Source: a virus. From it: DNA of 64,000 nt. The position numbers and the translations under genes are program-made. The stretch lies in the IMG/VR virus record IMGVR_UViG_3300010370_000030, positions 1 through 64,000 of that record; one strand, 5' to 3'. Shown here piece after piece: positions 1,086 to 20,278 of this stretch. Numbering within the stretch: position 1 is the stretch's first letter; each line of letters begins with the position of its first letter. The notes beneath the pieces are model-generated. The model was not told where the DNA came from. It saw nothing but the letters and a program-made list of their open reading frames with translations, and ran no database searches.

Positions 1086-1318
1086 TTTTGCATAGTAGGA
1101 AATGCGTTTAAATACGGGGGGTGGTGTGAGGTGATTTGGACCTCAGACTCTCTCAAAAGTCAACAGACCATCTCTCAATCACTTTCCCATAATACAAAAT
1201 CATTTCCCACAATACAAAATACTCCCCACCTCAACATTTCATACCTCAACTATTCACATCTAAACATTTCATACCTCAACAATCCCACAATACAAAATCA
1301 TTTCCTACAATGTAAAAA
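1086..1318. repeat. About 20-nt dispersed repeat (CATTTCCyAcAATrcAAAAT) plus AACATTTCATACCTCAAC x2
   Basis: Copies near 1181-1200, 1201-1220, 1281-1298, 1299-1318 and an inverted copy near 1086-1104. Confidence 0.7.
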
Positions 1319-1330
1319 ACCCCTCCAAAT

Positions 1331-1368
1331 AAAAAAAAAGAATCTAGCTTTTACACTAGATTCTTTTT
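1331..1368 (-). terminator. Rho-independent terminator of the C-free gene (possibly bidirectional)
   Basis: Stem AAAAAGAATCTAG / CTAGATTCTTTTT with 8-nt loop; U9 tract on the minus strand. Confidence 0.8.
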
Positions 1369-1383
1369 AATTATCAACCCCTT

Positions 1384-1773
1384 CTAATCATTCTTCACAT
1401 TCACAAACACACTATACTCCTCCTCACCATAACTCACACAATACATCCACTCCTCATTCCCACTCTCCCACAACATAAACCCATCATCATACCACTCATT
1501 CCAATCACAATCCTCATCATCACATTCCTCTCCAAACTCCTTCCTAATATTCTCCTTCCACTCCTCAAACCCCATATACTCATCACTCTTCCTAAACTCC
1601 TCTAACCCTCCCCTACATCCAAACACAAACTCATATACTCCATCCCCTCCCTCTTCAATAATCTCCACAATATCACTATACTCAAACCCATTATTCAAAT
1701 ACTCAATCTCACTCTTCATCTTCTCAATCATCACACTCACATTCACAACTTTATTAATCACAACTTTACTCAT
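1384..1773 (-). CDS. Cytosine-free, highly acidic 129-aa protein (DNA-mimic / anti-defence candidate)
   Basis: ATG at 1773 with GGAG 6 nt upstream; own promoter and terminator; no C in the coding strand; 35 D/E versus 11 K/R; no A, P, T, H or Q. Confidence 0.85.
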   Translation of the reverse strand: MSKVVINKVVNVSVMIEKMKSEIEYLNNGFEYSDIVEIIEEGGDGVYEFVFGCRGGLEEFRKSDEYMGFEEWKENIRKEFGEECDDEDCDWNEWYDDGFMLWESGNEEWMYCVSYGEEEYSVFVNVKND

Positions 1774-1815
1774 TTCTCTCTCCATTAAATTAAACACCTC
1801 TCAAACAACAACAAC

Positions 1816-1845
1816 ATATTATAACAAACACATTCTCTCATCAAC
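1816..1845 (-). promoter_or_regulatory. Sigma70-type early promoter, C-free variant
   Basis: GTTGATG-N17-TAATAT, also containing extended -10 TGTTATAAT; parallels GTTGACC-N17-TAATAT at 3264 and 3639. Confidence 0.75.
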
Positions 1846-1864
1846 TCTCTATCAAAATACCCAA

Positions 1865-1902
1865 GTCAACAGTAAGCTCATTCAAAAGACCATACTGTTG
1901 AC
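1865..1902. repeat. Inverted repeat GTCAACAGTA/TACTGTTGAC (back-to-back -35-like boxes)
   Basis: Perfect 10-bp inverted repeat with 18-nt spacer; marks the right edge of the G-free tract. Confidence 0.6.
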
Positions 1903-2074
1903 AAGCTCATGCAAAGTATGAGACAATGAGTGGGGGACCGTTTGCGCGGGGTTGGCGGTGGCGCGCTCTCGCCGTCCATCCCCAGAGTGCCTGTTCGAAC
2001 GCATAGAGACATCATCCATAAAAAAAGAGACCAAGACAACAGACCACATATCCTACATTGTAGGAAATAAATAT

Positions 2075-2441: not shown

Positions 2442-2471
2442 GTTGACCTGGTATTTGGTCTGTGCTATACT
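2442..2471 (+). promoter_or_regulatory. Repeated early promoter 2
   Basis: GTTGACC-N17(TGGTCT)-TATACT. Confidence 0.85.
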
Positions 2472-2498
2472 GACCTCACTGTTCAAATGGAGTTCCAA

Positions 2499-2855
2499 AT
2501 GAAAGTGTTCGTGTACTTCAACTTGCACAAGAAGTGCTGGTCTGTCAAAGCTCTCGAGGGTCCCCGCAAGGGCCGGGTGGTCCAGCATGCGAAGACTATC
2601 GCTCTGCATAACGTCACATTCAAGGTGTCCGAGGCTGGACGTCAACGAGTGCTGCGGGAGAAGAAGAAGAATGTGCATGCAGGAGCTGTTGGCACGCTGG
2701 ATGTGTACTCATATGAGCCCAGCTCTGTTGACGGTCTCGCCAAGGTCTCATACAATCCCTACAAGGCAGGACACTTCGTCAACAAAGAGACGAATGAGCC
2801 TGTCTACACCGCGCAGTATGCGTATCTCATTGACAAAACCGTGATGGTGAAATAA
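2499..2855 (+). CDS. Conserved phage hypothetical protein
   Basis: VYFNLHKK...GRQRVLREKKKNVHA...YNPY motif family; GGAG RBS. Confidence 0.8.
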   Translation: MKVFVYFNLHKKCWSVKALEGPRKGRVVQHAKTIALHNVTFKVSEAGRQRVLREKKKNVHAGAVGTLDVYSYEPSSVDGLAKVSYNPYKAGHFVNKETNEPVYTAQYAYLIDKTVMVK

Positions 2856-3263
2856 ATGTTTGATTCCACTCGCTTCGCTTCCTACAACGACTACAACGAC
2901 TATCTCACCCGCAAGCTCGCTCATTACAATGAGTGGCTGGGAGATCCCAAGCGGACGTTCAAGAATGGTCCCTACCCAGGGTTCCCTGAGGACCTCGAGC
3001 ATGCAGCTCGTATCCAGTCCTTCAAGAAGGCAGCTGCTCAGGAGTTCGAGAAGAAGGCGAACCCTCCCATTGAGCGCAAGAAGAAGTCAAAGAAGGCAAA
3101 GAAGACTGCTGATGGTGGTCCTACCAAACAAGAGCGTGCTGTTGACATCTTCAAGCGTTTGAGTGGGGAGAAGGCTGCGACCATCCAAGCAATCCAGGAT
3201 GAGCTCGGCATGTCGCTCGCTGGTGCCACTACATACTTCTACAATGCAAAGAAGTTGGTCTGA
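2856..3263 (+). CDS. Two-domain protein with HTH-like C-terminus
   Basis: C-terminus GMSLAGATTYFYNAKK matches ORF 5012; N-terminus matches ORF 13016. Confidence 0.8.
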   Translation: MFDSTRFASYNDYNDYLTRKLAHYNEWLGDPKRTFKNGPYPGFPEDLEHAARIQSFKKAAAQEFEKKANPPIERKKKSKKAKKTADGGPTKQERAVDIFKRLSGEKAATIQAIQDELGMSLAGATTYFYNAKKLV

Positions 3264-3306
3264 GTTGACCTAAGGTCTGGTCTGTTGTAATATGGCCAGA
3301 CCTTAA
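3264..3306 (+). promoter_or_regulatory. Repeated early promoter 3 with stem-loop
   Basis: GTTGACC-N17-TAATAT; AAGGTCTGGTC/GGCCAGACCTT stem encloses the -10. Confidence 0.85.
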
Positions 3307-3319
3307 CAAGGAGATAGAG

Positions 3320-3631
3320 ATGTCAGTTCAAATCAAATCTGTTGTTCGTCCTACTCAACTCGTTCGCAATGTAATGTACAAACACGAGAGTACACGTGGA
3401 CTCGTGTTCACAAACAAGTACAAAACTTGTAGAACTGTCAAGTGCTATTTTGATCCCAAAGTAGGTGCAGAGGAACTCATTTCAGACATCACATCAGTTC
3501 TACAAACAGCAGGTGTACAAGAGTTCAAAATCAAAACCCTAAAGTACACGGATCCATTTCTCTTGGGTCGTATGTGTTACACCTTTAATTCTCTCATTGT
3601 AAGAATCCCTTTCTCAGAACAAGCTCAATAA
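3320..3631 (+). CDS. Hypothetical protein (cassette between near-identical promoters)
   Basis: AAGGAG RBS; ORF track. Confidence 0.75.
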   Translation: MSVQIKSVVRPTQLVRNVMYKHESTRGLVFTNKYKTCRTVKCYFDPKVGAEELISDITSVLQTAGVQEFKIKTLKYTDPFLLGRMCYTFNSLIVRIPFSEQAQ

Positions 3632-3638
3632 ACAAATA

Positions 3639-3681
3639 GTTGACCTAAGGTCTGGTCTGTAGTAATATGGCCAGACCTTAA
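3639..3681 (+). promoter_or_regulatory. Repeated early promoter 4 (near-identical to 3)
   Basis: Identical to 3264-3306 except one base. Confidence 0.85.
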
Positions 3682-3695
3682 ATAAGGAGATTGAG

Positions 3696-3923
3696 ATGTA
3701 CGTTCAAGTCTACATTCCTACTGTGATTCTCGAGATGGTTGAAGAGGCCTTTGAAGGGCTCTTTGGCCGCAGGCCTACCACAAAGGAGCTGCGGGACTTC
3801 TTCGCAGCAGACGTAGCAACACTGTACGATCAAGGCATTCACGAAGCTCCTACAAACGAGCTCGAGGACTCCCTCCATCACTTCTTCTATCACAAATTCA
3901 ACACTCCTCCGGAGGCTGCATAA
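3696..3923 (+). CDS. Hypothetical acidic protein
   Basis: AAGGAG RBS; ORF track. Confidence 0.75.
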   Translation: MYVQVYIPTVILEMVEEAFEGLFGRRPTTKELRDFFAADVATLYDQGIHEAPTNELEDSLHHFFYHKFNTPPEAA

Positions 3924-4060
3924 TGAGCTGGGCACGCAAGATGGCTGACAAGCGGAAGATCAATCGTGTATTGGTCCGCTGCAAGAATGTCCGACACAAC
4001 GACAAGCGTACTAAGGTAATGGAGCGTGAGCTCCGCAAAGAAGAGCGAGGTGTAGCATGA
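3923..4060 (+). CDS. Small basic protein, 45 aa
   Basis: MSWARKMADKRK...; TAATG coupling; GGAGG RBS. Confidence 0.65.
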   Translation: MSWARKMADKRKINRVLVRCKNVRHNDKRTKVMERELRKEERGVA

Positions 4061-4218
4061 GCCGTGCGAAAGAACTCCTGGAAGACATCAAAGAAGATAT
4101 CCGCGATGGGTTCCTCTCCGACAAAAGCATTGCACGGAAGTATGATGTGCCTATTGAATGGGTGTACATTGCGTGGGACCAGCTCTGTCAAGAAGAACAT
4201 AATTGTGAGTTGACCTGA
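4057..4218 (+). CDS. Small HTH-like protein, 53 aa
   Basis: MSRAKELLEDI...SDKSIARKYDVPIEWV; ATGA overlap. Confidence 0.65.
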   Translation: MSRAKELLEDIKEDIRDGFLSDKSIARKYDVPIEWVYIAWDQLCQEEHNCELT

Positions 4219-4238
4219 TACCTGGTCTATAGTATGAT
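4209..4238 (+). promoter_or_regulatory. Repeated early promoter 5
   Basis: GTTGACC-N17(TGGTCT)-TATGAT-GGCC. Confidence 0.85.
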
Positions 4239-4266
4239 GGCCTCACGTTAAACAAAGGAGTTAGTA

Positions 4267-4497
4267 ATGAGCCAAGCACAATTCTTCTACGAAGTCAATC
4301 GGGAGCAAGCAGAGATGGAAGATGTCAACGCCGAGCTGCAGATCCTTGCAGACGAAGTGCAGCAGGAAGTAATCGAAGAGCAGTTCCGTCGGTTCCTGCA
4401 GGAAGTATTCGGAGCTCTCTACGAGGAGATCGATCTGGGTTGTGAGTTCGACCTCATCCAGGATATGGAAGCTGGTTGGGACCTTCATAAGGCCTGA
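4267..4497 (+). CDS. Acidic small protein
   Basis: 20 D/E in 76 aa; AAGGAG RBS. Confidence 0.75.
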   Translation: MSQAQFFYEVNREQAEMEDVNAELQILADEVQQEVIEEQFRRFLQEVFGALYEEIDLGCEFDLIQDMEAGWDLHKA

Positions 4498-4527
4498 GTT
4501 GACCAAAGGGCTGGTCTAGTATAGACT
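4498..4527 (+). promoter_or_regulatory. Repeated early promoter 6
   Basis: GTTGACC-N17(TGGTCT)-TAGACT-GGCC with stem. Confidence 0.85.
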
Positions 4528-4552
4528 GGCCCTACTTTAACAGGAGATGGTA

Positions 4553-4954
4553 ATGAAAGCTGGAACGTACTACATCGGTGACCTCTGCTATGTGTTCAAC
4601 ATGGACGACTGGAATGATGTGTGCAACATCACGATGGATGGACGTGAGGGTGAGTTTGAGCTGCCAGATGGTCGCAAGTTCGCACTCTACAACACTGCAT
4701 ATGGTGATGGAGAGTACAACGACCAGTTTGGCAACAAATACCCTGTCGACTCTGGCACTATCGGATGTGTGTTGTGGAAAGACACTTCTCGCTATGAGTA
4801 CATCCTTGCTGATGTGGGTGCTGTTGTTGACATGAAAGAGGATTTCGATACCTGCTCAGATGGGAACGGTCTCATCAAAATCGGTAGCACGACTATCGAC
4901 ACTGCCGAAGAATGGCTCGATCAGTATGATGAAGAGAATGAAGAATGGAGTTGA
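4553..4954 (+). CDS. Conserved acidic phage protein
   Basis: YYIGDLCY...TAYGDG...VDSGTIG motifs; AGGAG RBS. Confidence 0.75.
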   Translation: MKAGTYYIGDLCYVFNMDDWNDVCNITMDGREGEFELPDGRKFALYNTAYGDGEYNDQFGNKYPVDSGTIGCVLWKDTSRYEYILADVGAVVDMKEDFDTCSDGNGLIKIGSTTIDTAEEWLDQYDEENEEWS

Positions 4955-4979
4955 CCTGAAATCTGGTCTATGGTATGCT
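4950..4979 (+). promoter_or_regulatory. Repeated early promoter 7
   Basis: GTTGACC-N17(TGGTCT)-TATGCT-GGCC. Confidence 0.85.
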
Positions 4980-5011
4980 GGCCTTACGTTAATCAATTAA
5001 AGGAGTTTCAA

Positions 5012-5320
5012 ATGAACCAAGTCTTCTCAATGCTCACCCAGTCCCTCATCGATGGCAAAGATGCTGCTGCTGCAGTAGTTGCTCCTGCAAAGAAGAAAGC
5101 TGTCCGGGCTAAGCCTGCAGCGAAGAAGGATCTTGCAGAGCAGGTGGTCGAAGTAGTAAAGCTAAAGGCTCGCCCAGGCACGAAGGCTGATCTCGCTCTG
5201 GAGATCGTGCAGAAGGCAGGCACTCGTAAAGAAGCGATCGCTGAGATCATGGATGTGTGTGGTATGACGGTGCAGGGAGCAACGACGTACTACTACAATG
5301 CAAAGAAGAAGCTGGCCTAA
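5012..5320 (+). CDS. Lys/Ala-rich protein with HTH-like C-terminus
   Basis: GMTVQGATTYYYNAKK paralogous to ORF 2856; AAGGAG RBS. Confidence 0.8.
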   Translation: MNQVFSMLTQSLIDGKDAAAAVVAPAKKKAVRAKPAAKKDLAEQVVEVVKLKARPGTKADLALEIVQKAGTRKEAIAEIMDVCGMTVQGATTYYYNAKKKLA

Positions 5321-5357
5321 GTTGACAACAAGGCTGGCCTACAACAGGCCAGCCTTT
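5321..5357 (+). promoter_or_regulatory. Degenerate repeat unit: -35 box plus perfect hairpin, no -10
   Basis: GTTGACA followed by AAGGCTGGCCT/AGGCCAGCCTT. Confidence 0.55.
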
Positions 5358-5379
5358 CATTCATCATAAGGAGTCTATT

Positions 5380-5682
5380 ATGTTCGCAATGCCTAACACT
5401 CGTCAAGTTCGTCGTATCATTCGTGAAGCTGCTCGTGATATCGGTGTCACGTTCGAGCGTCATTCGTGGACAGACAAAGTGGATGTTGAGAATCCGAAGC
5501 TGCGTCAGGTCTGCTTGAGTCCTCTCTATCTGGGACCTGAGCCTCACAGCAAGTATGACGAGCTGATCAACATTATCCGCAATCGTCTTGCTCAACACAA
5601 CCTCCTCATCATTCAAGGGTTGTCTGATCATCTCTATGTTCGGTTCTATGGCGAGATCGCCCCTCGCAAAAAAAAGGTCTGA
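5380..5682 (+). CDS. Hypothetical protein
   Basis: AAGGAG RBS; ORF track. Confidence 0.7.
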   Translation: MFAMPNTRQVRRIIREAARDIGVTFERHSWTDKVDVENPKLRQVCLSPLYLGPEPHSKYDELINIIRNRLAQHNLLIIQGLSDHLYVRFYGEIAPRKKKV

Positions 5683-5687
5683 CCTGA

Positions 5688-5717
5688 GTTGACCGTGAGG
5701 CTGGTCTATGGGATACT
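5688..5717 (+). promoter_or_regulatory. Repeated early promoter 9
   Basis: GTTGACC-N17(TGGTCT)-GATACT-GGCC. Confidence 0.8.
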
Positions 5718-5745
5718 GGCCTCACGTTAAACAAAGGAGTTAGTG

Positions 5746-5943
5746 ATGTACATCAATCTTCAGCCGAGCAAGACCTACAAGACCCGCGAGAACGCCATCA
5801 AGGCAGCGATGACGCAGGTCTGCAGCAAGCGTGACGATCTGCGGTTCATCATCAGCATCACGGAAGACGGTCGCTTCTTCCCAGTGTTCCTTGGTGTCAA
5901 TGCTCTGCCGGTGATCCACATCGGATTCTGTGTGGCAGCCTAA
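5746..5943 (+). CDS. Hypothetical protein
   Basis: KTYKTRENAIKA...GRFFPVF; AAGGAG RBS. Confidence 0.7.
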   Translation: MYINLQPSKTYKTRENAIKAAMTQVCSKRDDLRFIISITEDGRFFPVFLGVNALPVIHIGFCVAA

Positions 5944-5945
5944 GA

Positions 5946-5980
5946 GTTGACCAGGCCAGTGTTCTGAGGGATACTGGCCT
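5946..5980 (+). promoter_or_regulatory. Repeated early promoter 10
   Basis: GTTGACC-N17-GATACT; AGGCCAGT/ACTGGCCT stem. Confidence 0.8.
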
Positions 5981-6000
5981 CACTGTTAAACAAGGAGCTA

Positions 6001-6243
6001 ATGATGAGTGCAAACGAGATCAAAGTCTACGGCATGTCGGTCGAGCGCATCCAGGAAGAGTATGTCAACAGCATCACGGCTCAGTGCTGCGGCCTGGAGA
6101 TGGTTGTGGCTGGCATCCTGAGCGATGTGCAAGAGGTTGTGCCGTTTGACCATGTCAGGCCCGAGCAAATCCGTCAGCAGCTGAACATCGCTAAGTACCT
6201 CCTTACGCTGATGGCTCGGCAACGTCGTGAGCAGGTAGCATGA
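6001..6243 (+). CDS. Hypothetical protein
   Basis: AAGGAG RBS; ORF track. Confidence 0.75.
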   Translation: MMSANEIKVYGMSVERIQEEYVNSITAQCCGLEMVVAGILSDVQEVVPFDHVRPEQIRQQLNIAKYLLTLMARQRREQVA

Positions 6244-6425
6244 AGTACTCAGAGATGTCCTTCGTCGCCTTCCTGCAGGCGGCGGAGGATTATGCAGAAG
6301 CAGAGGGTATGCTGGCGGAGTTCACGACTACGTACCAGTACTACAGGGTGTACTGCAGTGTGAAGGACAGCACACTGCTTGCCCTCAACGATGTGTTCGG
6401 CAGAGAATGTCCTCTCATTCATTAA
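6240..6425 (+). CDS. Hypothetical protein
   Basis: ATGA coupling. Confidence 0.65.
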   Translation: MKYSEMSFVAFLQAAEDYAEAEGMLAEFTTTYQYYRVYCSVKDSTLLALNDVFGRECPLIH

Positions 6426-6435
6426 GGAGTTCAAC

Positions 6436-6795
6436 ATGAGTACTCGTGCATTCATCGGCATGCAACAGAGCAACGGCAAACTGATTGGCAACTACTGTCA
6501 CTATGATGGATACCCGTCGCACGTCGGTAAGCAGCTTGTTGCGTACTACAGCACCGCTGAGCATGCCATCGCTCTGATCGGTGGTCCGCAGATCCGCTGC
6601 TTTGTTGAAGGGGAAGTCGAGCGCTTCAAGGACAGCGATATTGGCACGGAGACATTTGAGAGTGTGGATGAGGTACTCAACAGCGGCTACGACTACTGCT
6701 ACCTCTTCTCCAAGGAGGAGCAGTGCTGGAAGTGTTTCGGTCGGGATTATGGCCCCTACGCATCCATCATCGTCTCCAAAGAGATCCCGCGTTGA
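6436..6795 (+). CDS. Conserved phage protein (YCHxDGYP family)
   Basis: MSTRAFIG...YCHYDGYP; AAGGAG RBS. Confidence 0.8.
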   Translation: MSTRAFIGMQQSNGKLIGNYCHYDGYPSHVGKQLVAYYSTAEHAIALIGGPQIRCFVEGEVERFKDSDIGTETFESVDEVLNSGYDYCYLFSKEEQCWKCFGRDYGPYASIIVSKEIPR

Positions 6796-6820
6796 CCTGT
6801 TACCTGGTCTAGGGGATACT
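6791..6820 (+). promoter_or_regulatory. Repeated early promoter 11
   Basis: GTTGACC-N17(TGGTCT)-GATACT. Confidence 0.8.
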
Positions 6821-6849
6821 CTCCCTACTGTCAAACAAAGGAGCTGATC

Positions 6850-7065
6850 ATGCAACAACAGAGCTGGGTGAAAGATGGCGAGCGTATCCGTGGGAACTAC
6901 CATGGGAAGGTTGTGGAGGGTGTTGTGCATGACAGCCGAGTAAAGTACGGCGGCATGGTACAGTACAGAGTCATGCTTGACAACACTGTTCGCCTGCCAT
7001 GGCGCTCTGAGCCAGTCAGCGTAGTCTTGCTCGACGAGAGCGAAGTGCTCCCCAGCGAAGTTTGA
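6850..7065 (+). CDS. Hypothetical protein (SH3-like pattern)
   Basis: AAGGAG RBS; G-x-V-x-G-x-V...SRVKYGG-x-VQY. Confidence 0.7.
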   Translation: MQQQSWVKDGERIRGNYHGKVVEGVVHDSRVKYGGMVQYRVMLDNTVRLPWRSEPVSVVLLDESEVLPSEV

Positions 7066-7067
7066 GT

Positions 7068-7268
7068 GCCTGCAGGGGCCCCTGCGGCCCCCTGCAGAGT
7101 CGTACTGCTCCCCTGCAGCCCGCCGGGGGCCCGCCTTTTTTAACGCGCAGGTACCCGTACCCGGGTTCCAGTACTTGGCTGTGTGTCTCCAAAGGGGGGC
7201 CCGCCTTGTTTTATCCGAATCTGAAAAAAGCTGTCTCAAAAAATTTTTTTGGCAAAAAATCGCGAAAA
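7068..7268. repeat. GC-rich palindrome and direct-repeat cluster followed by A-tracts
   Basis: GCAGGGGCCCCTGC palindrome, CCCCTGC x3, GGGGGCCCGCCTT x2, GTAC x4, AAAAATTTTT. Confidence 0.75.
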
Positions 7269-7281
7269 GGAGCGTCTGCAA

Positions 7282-7926
7282 ATGATCTGGGCTATCCGAA
7301 TTACATTCTTCTTATTGGCGCCTCTCATCCTCTATTGGCAGTATAGAGACGTGCAGAATCTTTTTGCGAGTGTAGAGGCACTCTATGAGAATCAGATTGC
7401 TATCGTACAGGGACAGTTAGCAATTACATCAGAGATCAAGGAGTTGCGAGCAGAAGTATTGCAGCAACCAGTGCCACAGGCGCCTGCACCTAGCATTAAG
7501 CCTCCTTTGCAGGTGATCCGTACAGATCATCAATTGAAGCATGACCCACTTGACATCTTCTGTATGGCAAAGAACATATATCATGAAGCTGCACATGAGC
7601 CTGAGATTGGTCGCTATGCAGTTGCGCAGGTAACACTTAACCGCAAAATGAATCCTAAGTATCCAAAGAAGATTTGTGATGTGATCCTGGATCCATATCA
7701 GTTTAGTTGGGCAAACGATAAGAAGATTCGCTGGACAAATCCTAAAGGTCCTGCATGGGAGGAATCCAAGCGTATTGCATATAATGTAGTAGTAGAGGGG
7801 TATAGAGTGAAAGGACTAGAGCATGGCCTCTTCTATCATGCAGACTATGTCAGTCCTAAATGGCGCGATAACAATGCTCATATCACTCAGATCGGTAGAC
7901 ATATCTTCTATAGCCGGGCACTTTGA
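7282..7926 (+). CDS. Cell wall hydrolase, SleB/Hydrolase_2 family, with N-terminal TM anchor
   Basis: CMAKNIYHEA...AVAQVTLNR...QFSW...FYHADYV...IGRHIFY. Confidence 0.9.
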   Translation: MIWAIRITFFLLAPLILYWQYRDVQNLFASVEALYENQIAIVQGQLAITSEIKELRAEVLQQPVPQAPAPSIKPPLQVIRTDHQLKHDPLDIFCMAKNIYHEAAHEPEIGRYAVAQVTLNRKMNPKYPKKICDVILDPYQFSWANDKKIRWTNPKGPAWEESKRIAYNVVVEGYRVKGLEHGLFYHADYVSPKWRDNNAHITQIGRHIFYSRAL

Positions 7927-7938
7927 AGGAGCGCTGAT

Positions 7939-8163
7939 ATGAACAAACGAATTCTAGAGCTTGCTGAACAGGCTGGGATTACGACTAACTTGGATACTGA
8001 TTACTTTGAAAAAGACGTCAATAAATGGGTTGACTATTATTCAGAAAAGTTCGCCGAACTAATCATCCAGGAATGCATTGACAACCTACTTTGGCATGGG
8101 CATGATGAGGCTGCAAGCCAGTTGGAATGGCTACGAGGAAATCGTTTCGGAATTAAAAAGTAA
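7939..8163 (+). CDS. MNxRIxELA...FAELIxxEC family protein 1
   Basis: Paralog of ORFs 10063, 10720, 11060. Confidence 0.75.
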   Translation: MNKRILELAEQAGITTNLDTDYFEKDVNKWVDYYSEKFAELIIQECIDNLLWHGHDEAASQLEWLRGNRFGIKK

Positions 8164-8167
8164 TTAT

Positions 8168-8198
8168 GTTGACTCTTTAGCTGGTCTCGTTGTATAGT
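8168..8198 (+). promoter_or_regulatory. Repeated early promoter 12
   Basis: GTTGACT-N18(TGGTCT)-TATAGT. Confidence 0.75.
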
Positions 8199-16813: not shown

Positions 16814-17548
16814 ATGAAAGACAGCCACAAACTTTTTGCCCTCCAACTAATAGCACATTTAGCAATTATCCCAATGATACTGTTTGCTTCATGGTATCAT
16901 TGGGTTATGGCTATACTTGTATATTTTGTTGGTGGGACGTCTATTACTGTCATTTATCATCGCCTGCTTTCTCATAAAGCCTGGATATCACCGAGGTGGT
17001 TTGAAATACTTGGCACATTGACAAGTACTTACATCGCTGCTGGGAGTTCAATAGGGTGGGTTGCGACACATAGACAGCATCACCGTTACACAGATCGTGA
17101 AGGCGACCCACATTCACCTAACACTAAACCGTGGTGGAGAGTCCAATGGTTTAGTATGTTTGAACCCGTCAATGTAAAATATAGCGTCGACCTACTCCGT
17201 GACAAATTTCATCTTAAAATACACCAACACTACTTTAAAATACATGGATTCATCGCTACTGTTCTTTTTCTTATTGATCCTTTTGCTGTTGTATATCTGT
17301 ATCTGGTACCTGCTGCCCTTGTATGGAACGCTGGCAGTTCTATTAATACAGTAAACCATATGCTTGGTTATCGTAACTACGATACAAAAGACAACAGCAC
17401 GTGTAATTTTGTTACCGGCTACCTCGTTTTTGGTGAAGGCTGGCACAATAATCATCATGCTGAACCGGCATCAGAAAAATTTCAGCGTAAGTGGTGGGAG
17501 TTTGATCTCGGGTATCAAGTTATAAAATTGGTACGTAAAGATGCTTAA
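16814..17548 (+). CDS. Fatty acid desaturase (delta-9 / DesC-like)
   Basis: His boxes HRLLSH, HRQHH, GEGWHNNHH; TM segments. Confidence 0.9.
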   Translation: MKDSHKLFALQLIAHLAIIPMILFASWYHWVMAILVYFVGGTSITVIYHRLLSHKAWISPRWFEILGTLTSTYIAAGSSIGWVATHRQHHRYTDREGDPHSPNTKPWWRVQWFSMFEPVNVKYSVDLLRDKFHLKIHQHYFKIHGFIATVLFLIDPFAVVYLYLVPAALVWNAGSSINTVNHMLGYRNYDTKDNSTCNFVTGYLVFGEGWHNNHHAEPASEKFQRKWWEFDLGYQVIKLVRKDA

Positions 17549-18309: not shown

Positions 18310-18342
18310 GAGGCTTCCTTAACTGATCTAATGGAGTTAATT

Positions 18343-19293
18343 ATGGCACACATGGTTGAAACAATGGCTTATGCGGGTGAAGTTCCTTGGCACGGTCTTG
18401 GTGTTCAGGTTCCAAATGACCTTTCCCCTGCTCAAATGCTGCAAAAAGCTGGTCTTGACTGGCAAGTTCAAAAAGTTCCGGCGTTTTCCAACATTAATGG
18501 AACGCCTGTTAATGTTGGTTGGTCGGCTCTTGTTCGTAGCACTGACGATAAAGTCCTGTCTGTCGTATCCACCGACTGGAATCCTGTGCAAAACACAGAG
18601 GCTTTTGAGTTTTTTCACGAGTATTGTGCGGCTGGTGACATGGAAATGCACACGGCTGGCTCACTTCGCGGTGGTCAGATCGTATGGGTTCTTGCAAAAA
18701 TTAAGGAGTCATTTGACCTTTTCAACGGCGATACGGTCGAATCCTTCTTGTTGTTCACAAATCCTCACAAGTTCGGTCAATCCATCGATATTCGCTTCAC
18801 TCCAATCCGTGCTGTTTGCAATAACACGCTAACACTTGCACTCAGTCAACAAACGGACCGTATGGTCAAGAAGAGTCACCGTCGTGAATTCAACGCTGCA
18901 GAAGTAAAAGAGCAGCTTGGAATCGCAACTGACAAGCTCGCTAAGTATAAAGAGATGGCCGAGTTCCTTGGTTCGAAGCGTTACACGGGTGAATCTTTGA
19001 AAGAGTACTTCAACAAGGTTTTCCCCGTCCTTGCATACGACAAGGAAAAAGGTCCTCAGCGTAAAGAGGTTTCAAAATCAGCAGCTCTTGCGCTTGAAGT
19101 TGTCGAGACACAACCGGGTGCTCGTTTTGCTGAAGGTAGCTGGTGGCAAGCGTTTAACGCTGTCACGTACTTGACCGATCATAAGATTGGTAAGTCGGCT
19201 GATAATCGTTTGACTTCGGCTTGGTTCGGTCCTAACAAAAACCTCAAGGTGAAAGCTCTTGAGACTGCGGTCGAGTTTGCTGAAGCTGCTTGA
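18343..19293 (+). CDS. DUF932 family (phage/plasmid-like protein)
   Basis: MAHMVETMAY...PWHGLG...TPIRAVCNNT...WQAFNAVT. Confidence 0.9.
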   Translation: MAHMVETMAYAGEVPWHGLGVQVPNDLSPAQMLQKAGLDWQVQKVPAFSNINGTPVNVGWSALVRSTDDKVLSVVSTDWNPVQNTEAFEFFHEYCAAGDMEMHTAGSLRGGQIVWVLAKIKESFDLFNGDTVESFLLFTNPHKFGQSIDIRFTPIRAVCNNTLTLALSQQTDRMVKKSHRREFNAAEVKEQLGIATDKLAKYKEMAEFLGSKRYTGESLKEYFNKVFPVLAYDKEKGPQRKEVSKSAALALEVVETQPGARFAEGSWWQAFNAVTYLTDHKIGKSADNRLTSAWFGPNKNLKVKALETAVEFAEAA

Positions 19294-19300
19294 TGGAGGT

Positions 19301-19320
19301 GGGCCCTTCGGGGCCCTTTT
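19301..19320 (+). terminator. Rho-independent terminator
   Basis: GGGCCC-TTCG-GGGCCC-TTTT. Confidence 0.85.
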
Positions 19321-19321
19321 C

Positions 19322-20278
19322 ATGATATACATTGAAAAATTTTGGTACGAGAATAATTTTAACATAACAGAATTTTTTTCTAAGTTCGAATCTGGTCATG
19401 ACTATGAACCGTCTTGGCCAGCTGTCCTTGTTTCATCGTCGCGAGCCAATTTTGATGCTCACGAAGCAATGATGAACAACTATCGTTCAGGAAAAACAAG
19501 GACCAAACCATCATTGTGCCTTGCTGGAGGCCTTGAATCTGTTCATGCCGATATTTCTCGGATACTTGGTCTCTCGAACATGACATTCTCTGTCCTGTCA
19601 GCATGTACTTCTTCAGCATATGCAATATATCAAGCAGGGCTTATCAGTACGCACCAGGGTACTCCTGTTATTGTTGCGTGTGCTGATATGTTCTCTCCTA
19701 TCGATATGCATTGGTTCAATTCACTTGGCGCTGTTTCGCCAGATACAGGTATACCTTTTGATAAAAAAAGTAAGGGTTTCAGACCTAGCAAAGCCCAAGC
19801 GATGTTTGTTGTGTCTGCAAAACCAATCAATCCTGTAGCGCAGATTGAGCAAATGATGTTCATGACTCAACCACAAGAAAAAACAGCCATTGGGGCGCTT
19901 GATGAAATTGAGAAGATGTTTGATCTTGTTGCAATGAACAACGTTGAATGGTGGAATGCTCATTCACCGGGTACTCCTTTAGGTGACGCAACAGAGTTTG
20001 AACTATTCTCACGCTTCAAACGGGATATACCTATTTCTTCCTTGAAGGGTAGGTTTGGTCACGCCTTAGCAAGCTCTTACCTTCTCGAACTTGGCGGGGC
20101 TCTGGAGGCTGTAATGGCGGGAAAGGTCCCTCAGAACGAAGGAATAACGGAGAAGATTGTTGAGGATGATAGGATCATCACGGAACCGATAAGTATTGGA
20201 TGGCGGAAGAGGTTTGTTAAAATGAATATGGGGTTTGGAGGCAAAAACGTCCTGTCTGTTATAAAGGTACTAGTTTAA
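19322..20278 (+). CDS. Beta-ketoacyl synthase (FabB/FabF-like)
   Basis: Catalytic SACTSS, NAHSPGT, SLKGRFGH and C-terminal GFGGKN. Confidence 0.85.
   Translation: MIYIEKFWYENNFNITEFFSKFESGHDYEPSWPAVLVSSSRANFDAHEAMMNNYRSGKTRTKPSLCLAGGLESVHADISRILGLSNMTFSVLSACTSSAYAIYQAGLISTHQGTPVIVACADMFSPIDMHWFNSLGAVSPDTGIPFDKKSKGFRPSKAQAMFVVSAKPINPVAQIEQMMFMTQPQEKTAIGALDEIEKMFDLVAMNNVEWWNAHSPGTPLGDATEFELFSRFKRDIPISSLKGRFGHALASSYLLELGGALEAVMAGKVPQNEGITEKIVEDDRIITEPISIGWRKRFVKMNMGFGGKNVLSVIKVLV

Follow-up and report, generated by a model that had tools for sequence, protein, structure and literature searches.

A putative early-gene cassette written without cytosine in a freshwater T4-like phage

The stretch of DNA analyzed here (64,000 nt, hereafter the window) belongs to a contig of 81,807 nt from an uncultured freshwater phage whose gene content is T4-like. 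Baseplate genes of the T4 type were identified (gp6, gp8, and gp5-lysozyme domains), of which gp6 is 38% identical to that of the T4-superfamily phages phiM12 and Cr30. Small ORFs, each downstream of a consensus promoter, are located at 2.4-8.2 kb, and the early-promoter consensus of the phage (GTTGACC..CTGGTCT..TAATAT) was matched 13 times where 3.3 matches were expected. A scan for runs lacking a single base identified 505 nt without G on the + strand (1360-1864), for which the chance is ~1e-53 per start position at 21.6% G. The runner-up G-free runs in both the 64-kb window and the whole contig are 145 nt at 1167-1311, directly adjoining, and then 44 nt outside the locus, and none of the other bases is absent for more than 47 nt. 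The 505-nt run, which had been singled out in the original prediction, thus stands out in the contig-wide scan as well.

The region is read from the minus strand, antisense to the flanking early genes of the + strand, and its features are summarized in Table 1. Four G only are found on the + strand over 1167-1864 (at 1312, 1340, 1347, and 1359), three of which pair in the terminator stem. The absence of C from the minus strand spans promoter through stop codon and includes coding and non-coding parts alike. The sense strand here contains 37% G and 33% T, compared with 21.6% and 29% genome-wide. The promoter is a C-to-T/G version of the early consensus of the phage. The expected complete C-free transcription unit, with a C-free form of the early promoter, a GGAG, and an ORF on the minus strand, was in this way borne out. 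No canonical G-quadruplex spacing was seen by eye in the islands, Rfam gave no match within 800-2600, and for a GC-rich block upstream that is conserved in sequence we found no conserved fold.

Table 1. Features of the C-poor region (positions in the window)
Feature	Position	Strand	Remarks
Whole C-poor cassette	1167..1864	-	698 nt of sense strand with four C; bounded by C of two direct copies of CTGTTGACTT
Upstream copy of the 10-nt direct repeat CTGTTGACTT	1863..1872	-	early-promoter -35-type box, no -10 behind; C at 1865 is the last before the run
C-free early promoter	1816..1845	-	GTTGATG (1845-1839); 15 nt to TGT-TATAAT (1823-1818) or 17 nt to TAATAT (1821-1816)
Predicted transcription start	near 1809-1812	-	placed from the promoter
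GGAG ribosome-binding site	1780..1783	-	6 nt ahead of ATG
C-free ORF, 129 codons + stop	1384..1773	-	ATG at 1773, stop at 1386-1384
Bidirectional hairpin terminator + T-run	1326..1368	-	stem of 13-14 pairs; three of the four C, each paired with G in the stem
C-free non-coding tail with G tracts	1167..1311	-	145 nt; two internal direct repeats
Downstream copy of CTGTTGACTT	1157..1166	-	first C (1166) closes the C-free run

The layout suggests that 1167-1864 is a putative swappable early-gene cassette. The 10-nt direct repeats flank it, related genes differ in neighbourhood and orientation among contigs, and one allele (L004/P0013) is recombinant in mid-gene. In the PeSL (promoter-early/stem-loop) cassettes of the T4-type phages RB49 and phi1, a small early ORF that is not essential is preceded by a strong sigma70-like early promoter and followed by a stem-loop terminator (Arbiol et al. 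2010, PMC2839356). Compared by layout, the module in the window likewise has a sigma70-type early promoter ahead of a small ORF, is ended by a stem-loop terminator (13-14 pairs and a T-run at 1368-1326), has other small early genes around it in a T4-type genome, and is flanked by a repeated promoter sequence (CTGTTGACTT twice) with neighbours that vary between related phages. It differs in that PeSLs are not described as lacking any base, whereas the whole transcript in the window excludes C and its protein is built from 15 amino acids.

The reduced alphabet follows from the exclusion of C from the gene, and the 129-residue protein contains no A, P, T, H, or Q, as had been predicted. At the composition of the island a stop is expected every 10 codons, and 129 open codons are so improbable by chance (P ~9e-7) that the ORF must be regarded as real. 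The protein has 27% D+E (35 residues), a net charge of -24, and 21 aromatic residues, and structure prediction gave a compact alpha/beta domain with a pLDDT of 86.7. Pfam contained no family for it at E up to 10, and PHROGs yielded two families of unknown function only (E 0.19 and 1.2). Foldseek searches of the model against PDB and BFVD gave nothing at E<=0.001, the best match in a wide VIA-align search had a Z of 3.7 with no DNA mimic among the matches, and the ESM Atlas gave no usable match. Neither the DNA of the cassette nor the protein had a match among GenBank phage records, where no cultured phage with the gene was found. The protein resembles the DNA mimics Ocr, ArdA, and Arn in being small, very acidic, and encoded by an early phage gene, but differs from them in giving no HMM or fold match and in a predicted fold that is compact rather than elongated and DNA-like. 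Of the proposed DNA-mimic-like character, the acidity was thus confirmed, while the alpha/beta model, with no Pfam or PHROG family and no match to solved or viral structures, does not bear out the rest. The protein is probably a host-takeover or counter-defence factor.

In total, 20 sequencing runs from 16 studies contain the stretch or part of it, and contigs from four of these runs were aligned to it and confirmed the tract. A lake-water contig from 2019 (1020 nt) covers 951-1914, and freshwater contigs from 2024 match the tract at 99% or more. The spans 1392-1796 and 1378-1829 are covered by contigs from river RNA libraries, one library in each of two studies; they are a weak hint of expression of the C-free gene, because DNA can be present in such libraries. 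These contigs do not extend over the gene's flanks, an absence that counts as evidence of nothing. Divergent homologs are present in five other contigs. An assembly artefact and a synthetic C-less insert, named among the findings that would overturn the original prediction, were both ruled out by this recurrence of the tract in independent lake and freshwater assemblies and in divergent homologs.

The family retrieved comprises 36 proteins (27 representative clusters in the profile search) and is found in phages only. A, P, T, H, and Q are wholly missing from 22 of the 36, the C-free state of most members (P0001-P0036) being read from these missing residues rather than from DNA, and in most of the remaining proteins the five residues fall in segments that do not align with the family. 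Pfam and PHROGs searches with the other island proteins of G001, L016, and L014 gave nothing significant. Where DNA was compared, the homologous genes of the window, L003, L015, and L016 contain zero C in a total of 531 codons, as the original prediction required of homologs, at pairwise amino-acid identities of roughly 34-54%. The choice among C-free synonymous codons is almost fully randomised between these homologs (e.g., 17 differences seen and 17.6 expected), and the probability that ordinary codon usage would spell out the amino-acid sequence without any C is 1e-17. None of 16 variant positions inside the island creates a C on the sense strand, compared with 8 of 19 eligible positions outside it that create the corresponding G on the + strand (P = 0.003). 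C content is all-or-none, with 0% in island ORFs and then an empty gap up to 13.3% (G000) and 12.7% (G001) in the ORFs that come next. The relaxed homolog L014, with 15 C in 408 nt, shows C returning once the constraint lapses. These comparisons show purifying selection on the transcribed unit, by which every C is kept out.

The boundaries of the islands in the relatives are informative. Here the C-free run opens 0-3 nt past the -10 hexamer, and the promoter to which this hexamer belongs has C as well as G. In L016 the run begins at 840, past a C-containing promoter (TTGACT-17-TATAAT) that ends at 837, in L015 TTTACT-17-TATACT ends at 3991 where the run begins, and in L004 the run also begins at the transcript start with G and C in the promoter just upstream. 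The position of these starts, immediately behind the -10 box, shows a constraint that is tied to the transcript and not to sites in the DNA. Past the last stop codon, the C in the window, L003, and L015 (stems paired by eye) sit in the terminator stem, and in the stem of L015 a G-T wobble replaces a G-C pair. Untranslated leaders, spacers, internal promoters, and tails are also C-free in the window and its relatives. A cause acting on translation only, such as tRNA or amino-acid supply, was rejected on these grounds. A promoter of the same type as that of the window, GTTGATGAGARAATGTRTTTGT, lies within the island of G001, which was the sole match in a scan of IMG/VR with the promoter pattern.

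We tentatively interpret the locus as a C-free early cassette whose message is made or used where a single C is fatal, most likely during transcription without usable CTP. A single C in the message would be fatal under the condition in which the message must be made and used, and this condition would most likely be a lack of usable CTP, caused either by chain-terminating ddhCTP from a viperin-like defence or by loss of CTP. The C-free gene would then continue to yield its protein under conditions that defeat ordinary phage messages. Since C is the one nucleotide that neither the usual start codons nor any stop codon contains, only a C-directed block could be escaped by recoding. Prokaryotic viperins reportedly make ddhCTP, a chain terminator, and immunity directed at nucleoside triphosphates exists in the form of ATP-degrading effectors; our literature search returned no CTP-depleting defence beyond viperin. 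Synthetic G-less and C-less cassettes are said to be used for in vitro transcription, and resemble the locus in being stretches without one nucleotide that allow full-length transcription from three NTPs. They are engineered, non-coding, and ~400 nt long, whereas the cassette in the window is natural, codes for a member of a conserved family, and is kept by selection. An mRNA that needs no CTP had been offered as an alternative in the original prediction and is now, together with the equivalent G-less template, the best candidate. A C-less RNA and a G-less template amount to one property, and sequence alone tells apart neither these two nor chain termination and C-specific RNA cleavage. Several observations fit transcription without CTP poorly. 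In the window, the promoter and 20 nt upstream of it are needlessly C-free, as is the 145-nt tail past the terminator. An origin as an internal promoter, of the kind in the multi-gene islands of G001 and L016, can account for the C-free promoter but not for the tail. In addition, viperin genes are rare in bacteria, we found no link from the protein to viperin or CTP metabolism, and in a huge phage population even a weak cost per C, arising from Rho or RNA structure, could purge all C.

Completion without CTP (ddhCTP, CTP loss) is the explanation we favour, followed by C-dependent RNases and then by Rho. A message without C would lack the C-containing sites of single-strand-specific endoribonucleases, whether these are MazF/ChpBK/PemK/MqsR-type toxins released as infection aborts or an RNase that the phage itself uses for host shutoff. 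This is rather unlikely, although it agrees with the all-or-none C content, with boundaries shaped like a transcript, and with the fact that the sole C are paired within terminator stems, out of reach of single-strand RNases. The island mRNA contains 0 ACA, UAC, GCU, and ACY, where ordinary stretches of 433 nt contain 6-10 of each, and toxin RNases are common in all bacterial phyla. One toxin would, however, select against its own motif of 3-7 nt only and not against every C, and several defence RNases need no C (ToxN AAAU, Cas13, Csm6), with one AAAU present in the island mRNA. We know of no broadly C-specific bacterial RNase. An engineered counterpart is the MazF single-protein-production system, which reportedly uses ACA-less mRNAs and in which a message is likewise made immune to an endoribonuclease by recoding away the recognition sequence; the cassette would be its natural counterpart if an RNase were the cause. 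That system removes the ACA triplet only, whereas the cassette drops every C, and no data implicate an RNase. Less probable again is a message protected from Rho, which loads on C-rich, G-poor RNA through primary sites that bind YC. A C-less sense strand would not be terminable even when untranslated, the G-less and C-rich antisense strand would be an ideal Rho target, and a unit lying head-on to its neighbours would be protected. Rho avoidance is known to enrich sense strands in G relative to C (Dierksheide et al. 2026, PMC13323073), and the cassette shares the G-over-C sense strand and the pyrimidine-rich antisense strand, but the reported bias is genome-wide and of a few per cent while the bias seen here is absolute, restricted to a single cassette, and separated by a gap from all other genes. 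The island mRNA has 0 YC compared with ~40 in ordinary stretches, its untranslated leader, spacers, and tail are likewise C-free, and the unit is antisense to the flanking early genes. A graded pressure should, on the other hand, give a continuum, and no graded excess of G over C is common to the genes of the genome (skew of +1.0 in island ORFs and at most ~0.44 in all others, where C is at least 12.7-13.3%). Rho needs many C over >60-150 nt, and the last few C would therefore be nearly neutral. Moreover, the islands are T-rich (33-40%), and T-richness in B. subtilis also favours Rho (PMC13323073). The loss of five amino acids is left unexplained by Rho.

The remaining explanations are all improbable. 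A G-free template would make the transcribed strand immune to a guanine-directed modification or lesion, such as a 7-deazaguanine-type base of the phage itself or a DarT1-like guanine ADP-ribosylation. Its sequence predictions are identical to those of C-less RNA, but we found no TGT/DpdA, QueC, or thymidylate-synthase/dCMP-hydroxymethylase family gene in G001 (86% complete) or G000 (36% complete), and the sense strand, being 37% G, would be heavily modified, including the G retained in the -35 box. DarT acts on single-stranded DNA, and in an early gene the template strand does not become exposed. A template that resists UV or other damage was rejected, as the template strand is 67% pyrimidine. 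Slightly less probable than the G-free template is a message kept free of structure for immediate translation in cold water, or to avoid dsRNA for RNase III and RNA sensors. An mRNA is made unfoldable only by taking away one partner of the G-C pair, which in an ORF has to be C; the MFE predicted for the island mRNA is -0.08 kcal/mol per nt, compared with a median of -0.25 in ordinary stretches (-0.20 in the least structured), and at 10 °C it is -0.25 compared with -0.45. All loci come from aquatic samples. This pressure would nevertheless be graded, contrary to the all-or-none C content, one C adds little folding energy, and the non-coding tail needs no translation. The restriction-proof gene for a first-expressed protein against host defence, the main reading of the original prediction, now seems very improbable, also with the gene placed in first-entering DNA. 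Where one strand carries every G and its partner every C, a site that needs both bases is impossible, and an anti-restriction gene expressed first would therefore escape cutting. No GC-containing palindrome is possible in 1167-1864 outside the hairpin, the tail and in the window also the promoter are covered, and a 217-nt G-free segment abutting the C-free block in G001 fits a rule at the DNA level. The runs of L015, L004, and L016, on the contrary, leave out a promoter with G and C, and cuts in the other >99% of the genome would still be lethal. The phage has T4-type baseplate genes; T4-type phages package by headful and hence have no fixed entering end. Pfam, PHROGs, and fold searches revealed no similarity to Ocr, ArdA, or Arn. 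The lowest probability is given to a mutational origin, by C-to-U deamination of the displaced non-template strand in a heavily transcribed unit to which the proteins adapted. This would hit the transcribed stretch only and spare the hairpin-paired C, but the other early genes behind this type of promoter are unremarkable, and the relaxed homolog L014 has regained C. The lost C of the window were replaced mainly by G and to a lesser extent by T, and a simple C-to-T origin was rejected for this reason.

Whichever agent is responsible, some pressure makes each single C in the message costly, which points to a layer of phage-host conflict, or of transcription physiology, that has gone unrecognised. 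Our search of the literature found no description of natural C-free genes, and whole natural genes excluding one nucleotide, with folded 15-letter proteins, are new as far as we could find. Returning to messages made without CTP, it is possible, though speculative, that three-letter genes are a general strategy of large aquatic phages. Reserve early messages that are transcribed and survive without cytidine would then counter a widespread and largely undescribed immunity, or state of the host, that targets C (through CTP destruction, ddhCTP-like terminators, or a C-specific RNase, for instance), and the island proteins would be the matching counter-defence factors. The question is open to direct testing by synonymous recoding. 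The family would also be a natural experiment in reduced-alphabet protein design, with an alpha/beta fold predicted confidently in the absence of Ala, Pro, Thr, His, and Gln, and a C-free run is a mark in the sequence by which first-responder phage genes can easily be searched for in metagenomes.

Tails resembling that of the window are found at L015:4487-4596 and L003:6326-6433. Island heads and tails align weakly, with ATGATTnTGTATT common to the window and L015 together with a GGTGGGGAG-like run. The internal repeats of the tail in the window are GAAATGATTTTGTATT at 1304-1289 and 1206-1191, and GTTGAGGTATGAAATGTT at 1280-1263 and 1250-1233. A weak promoter, TTTACA-18-TATTGT, is located at 1316-1287, and the 145-nt tail may thus be a separate small C-free RNA.

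In the window, a base-run scan found zero G over 505 nt of the + strand (1360-1864). Directly beside it lies the next-longest G-free stretch (145 nt, 1167-1311), and the third measures 44 nt; runs lacking any one of the other bases stay at or below 47 nt, both in the window and throughout the 81,807-nt virus contig, whose bases 1-64000 make up the window. Within 1167-1864, G occurs on the + strand only at 1312, 1340, 1347, and 1359. Of the four corresponding sense-strand C, three form G-C pairs in the hairpin stem and the fourth lies within the half-palindrome TTTACATTGTAGG. Such a tract is single in this contig and single in G001, a contig carrying a homologous island, as seen by scanning both. 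The original prediction of a complete C-free transcription unit is borne out, the 505-nt run holding promoter, RBS, and 129 codons (see table). The ORF is genuine, since a stop is expected every 10 codons at island composition and a frame of 129 codons free of stops has P about 9e-7. A 79-codon ORF antisense to the cassette (1131-1370, +) is probably an artefact, because a G-free strand allows TAA stops only and so gives long frames by chance. C is the sole nucleotide dispensable for a complete ORF, because the usual starts (ATG, GTG, TTG) need T and G and all stops need T and A; three-letter genes are therefore possible only as C-free genes. What matters might be the loss of G-C pairing, or of strand symmetry, no less than C itself. 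No description of natural genes excluding one base was found in the literature, and the only parallels known to us are engineered G-less cassettes and ACA-less mRNAs.

Features of the C-free cassette and of related loci
Feature	Locus	Position	Strand	Details
-35-type box	window	1845-1839	minus	GTTGATG; predicted promoter
-10 box	window	1823-1818, or 1821-1816	minus	TGT-TATAAT, or TAATAT; predicted promoter
RBS	window	1783-1780	minus	GGAG
Start codon	window	1773	minus	ATG; 129 codons
Stop codon	window	1386-1384	minus	TAG
Hairpin	window	1368-1326	minus	13 pairs, with T-run
Non-coding tail	window	1311-1167	minus	C-free, 145 nt
C-free tail	L015	4487-4596
C-free tail	L003	6326-6433
10-nt direct repeat CTGTTGACTT	window	1157-1166 and 1863-1872	minus	early-promoter -35 box without -10; bounds cassette exactly
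GC-rich block	window	1925-2015, core 1964-1978	minus
GC-rich block	L015	3268-3282, 3770-3784
GC-rich block	L004	5232-5246, 5734-5748
GC-rich block	L016	1693-1707
Island	G001			155.5-kb contig, 86% complete; 188+1372+108 C-free nt; four ORFs, two predicted promoters (one of GTTGATGAGARAATGT type, like the window's), terminator
Island	L015			473+110 C-free nt
Island	L016			707 C-free nt, two ORFs
Island	L004			269 C-free nt, then recombinant ordinary 3' part
Relaxed family copy	L014	731-1141		15 C in 408 nt, four A/P/T/H/Q residues

The window holds 13 copies of the early-promoter pattern GTTGAC-N16-19-TAnnnT (3.3 expected), seven of them preceding small + strand ORFs at 2.4-5.0 kb. Judged by the early consensus GTTGACCTnAnGnCTGGTCTnTnGTAATAT and its island counterpart GTTGATGAGAGAATGTGTTTGTTATAATAT, the predicted island promoter is the phage's own early promoter minus its C, as originally proposed. 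The early promoters of GTTGACCTnAnGnCTGGTCTnTnGTAATAT type at 2442-8198 (+) also keep a conserved spacer motif, CTGGTCT, between -35 and -10. Sigma70 would not require it, and a factor of the phage or host may bind there.

The question raised earlier, whether homologs are also C-free, was answered at the DNA level: the genes in L003 (the stretch of G001 carrying its island), L015, and L016 are without C, that in L004 is partly C-free, and that in L014 is relaxed. C content was read from DNA for these five relatives, and most others were judged from protein. The G001 terminator holds the only three C of its island, all paired. In the recombinant allele of L004 (P0013, 6001-6297), roughly the first 73 codons belong to the C-free family and the gene continues from about 6224 as ordinary 20-letter sequence with C. 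Beside the relaxed copy, L014:1300-1563 is an ordinary 20-letter gene that shares 43% identity with the third, C-free gene of the G001 island; one protein family thus exists in 20-letter and 15-letter spelling. A 217-nt G-free, CCCACA-repeat-rich segment precedes the G001 island (L003:4537-4753; G001 151170-151386), a small hairpin forming the junction. Its complement is C-free, GTGGGA-rich, and downstream of an AATAATC -10-like box, and may represent a C-free non-coding RNA transcribed divergently.

The product of the 129-codon gene lacks Ala, Pro, Thr, His, and Gln, contains 27% Asp+Glu and 21 aromatic residues, and has a net charge of -24. It belongs to no Pfam or PHROG family, and its relatives, found only in phages, number 13 by word-indexed search and 27 clusters by exhaustive profile search. 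The five residues are wholly absent from 22 of 36 family proteins and in the remainder are mostly confined to parts unaligned with the family; all of the 36 but one, which is chimeric, are acidic, most with a net charge of -15 to -26. An AlphaFold model built with the family alignment is alpha/beta and confident (pLDDT 86.7, pTM 0.83), with no significant structural match in PDB, BFVD, or a full structural scan. Of the proposed acidic, DNA-mimic-like character, the acidity stands, and the mimic label derives from that acidity with no fold or family match. From position and regulation, an early host-takeover or counter-defence factor would be expected.

The four C-free homologous genes (window, L003, L015, L016) comprise 531 codons with zero C at pairwise amino-acid identities of roughly 34-54%. 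At conserved residues with several C-free codons, 17, 23, and 15 codon differences were observed against 17.6, 26.6, and 17.9 expected under full randomisation among C-free codons; synonymous codons being nearly randomised, the C-free state has persisted across saturating divergence. With the amino-acid sequence fixed and codons used as in ordinary genes of the phage, a gene free of C has P = 1e-17; absence of the five amino acids has P about 1e-18. Among population variants from other runs, 0 of 16 inside the island created a sense-strand C, compared with 8 of 19 eligible variants outside creating the corresponding base (P = 0.003). We read the C-free state as selection, not accident. Island ORFs have 0% C, and the next-lowest values are 13.3% among 99 non-overlapping ORFs in the window's contig and 12.7% among 209 in G001; the many other early genes with the same promoter type show no C gradient. 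This all-or-none content fits a pressure under which a single C does as much harm as many better than it fits a graded economy.

In L016, the C-free run sets in at 840, after the best predicted promoter (TTGACT-17-TATAAT, 809-837), whose -35 box and spacer contain C; in L015 and L004, a predicted TTTACT-17-TATACT promoter ends at 3991, where the run begins. C return 3' of the last stop codon in the terminator stems of the window, L003, and L015 (paired by eye at these three loci), a G-T wobble replacing a G-C pair in the L015 stem, and multi-gene islands have no C in their spacers or predicted internal promoters. Since runs start near promoter ends, C resume in terminator stems, and internal promoters and spacers are C-free, the rule follows the transcribed unit, that is, C-less RNA or equivalently G-less template, which speaks against a constraint acting on DNA sites; the same tracking excludes a purely translational cause. 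The window's C-free promoter is read as a former internal promoter; its type matches the internal promoters of G001 and L016, and 18 nt upstream lies a solitary -35-like box, CTGTTGACTT. The C-free tails, like the G-free head of G001, may represent small C-free RNAs of their own.

Among the candidate drivers, transcription needing no CTP was ranked highest. Neither ddhCTP made by viperin-like defence nor loss of CTP could stop it, and it would overcome the bootstrap problem that a counter-defence gene faces. This candidate is exact for C and all-or-none and agrees with C being tolerated after the stop codon; it accounts poorly for the C-free tail and for how widespread the phenomenon seems to be. 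Ranked next is a message immune to C-requiring endoribonucleases, consistent with C tolerated only where paired and with 0 ACA, UAC, GCU, and ACY in the island message against 6-10 of each in ordinary stretches. Immunity to Rho (PMC13323073) follows, the message having 0 YC against about 40 in ordinary stretches; it is weakened by the discontinuity in C content (0% against at least 12.7%).

A G-free template escaping modified or attacked guanine was placed fourth, and TGT/DpdA, QueC, and thymidylate-synthase-family genes were not found in G001 (86% complete) or the window's contig (36%). A structure-free message, ranked fifth, would match the predicted MFE of -0.08 kcal/mol per nt for the island against -0.25 for ordinary stretches. 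Restriction-proof DNA, the main reading of the original prediction, drops to sixth: the boundary follows the transcribed unit, not DNA sites, tracking the transcript in the relatives and leaving a C-containing promoter in L016. Strand-specific deamination is the lowest-ranked candidate.

The C-free tract is real DNA. The cassette stretch was recovered, whole or in part, from 20 public runs of 16 studies; a 1020-nt lake-water contig from 2019 spans 951-1914 in one piece, and the match of freshwater contigs from 2024 is 99% or better. The gene is also covered, at 1392-1796 and 1378-1829, by contigs of two river RNA libraries from separate studies; as contigs only, they are a weak hint of expression, because such libraries can contain DNA. 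The source is a distant, uncultured T4-like phage, since the contig (36% of a genome by CheckV) encodes gp6-, gp8-, and gp5-lysozyme-type baseplate proteins, its gp6 being about 38% identical to those of T4-superfamily phages of Sinorhizobium and Caulobacter. No cultured phage with the gene was found in GenBank phage records by DNA or protein. The early region also holds fatty-acid desaturase, DUF932, and beta-ketoacyl-synthase-like genes (16814-17548, 18331-19293, and 19259-20278, +), which are possible lipid-metabolism auxiliary genes.

In architecture the cassette is of the PeSL type found among early genes of T4-type phages (PMC2839356), with promoter, small ORF, and stem-loop. A 10-nt direct repeat derived from promoter sequence stands on either side, and its homologs differ in neighbourhood and orientation; repeats that bound the cassette exactly are what its movement through recombination at promoter boxes would be expected to leave. 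An inverted copy of the repeat, GTCAACAG, lies at 1895-1902. The palindrome CCTACAATGTAGG and near-copies (872-882, 1065-1077, 1304-1314, 2052-2064) cluster only around the cassette, with no exact copy elsewhere in the 64-kb window and none in the other loci, and look like operator or recombination sites; the copy within the C-free tail, TTTACATTGTAGG, retains a single C. In several phages, a conserved, GC-rich stretch some 45 nt long (GGTTCGAACAG..CTGGGGATGGACGnnGAGAGCG) adjoins the cassette downstream of its own predicted early-type promoter, and it recurs with other flanks in contigs of two public runs (X3 and X6). This GC-rich block matched nothing in Rfam and shows no conserved fold; it might code for a portion of a short basic peptide (..GDGRRER..).
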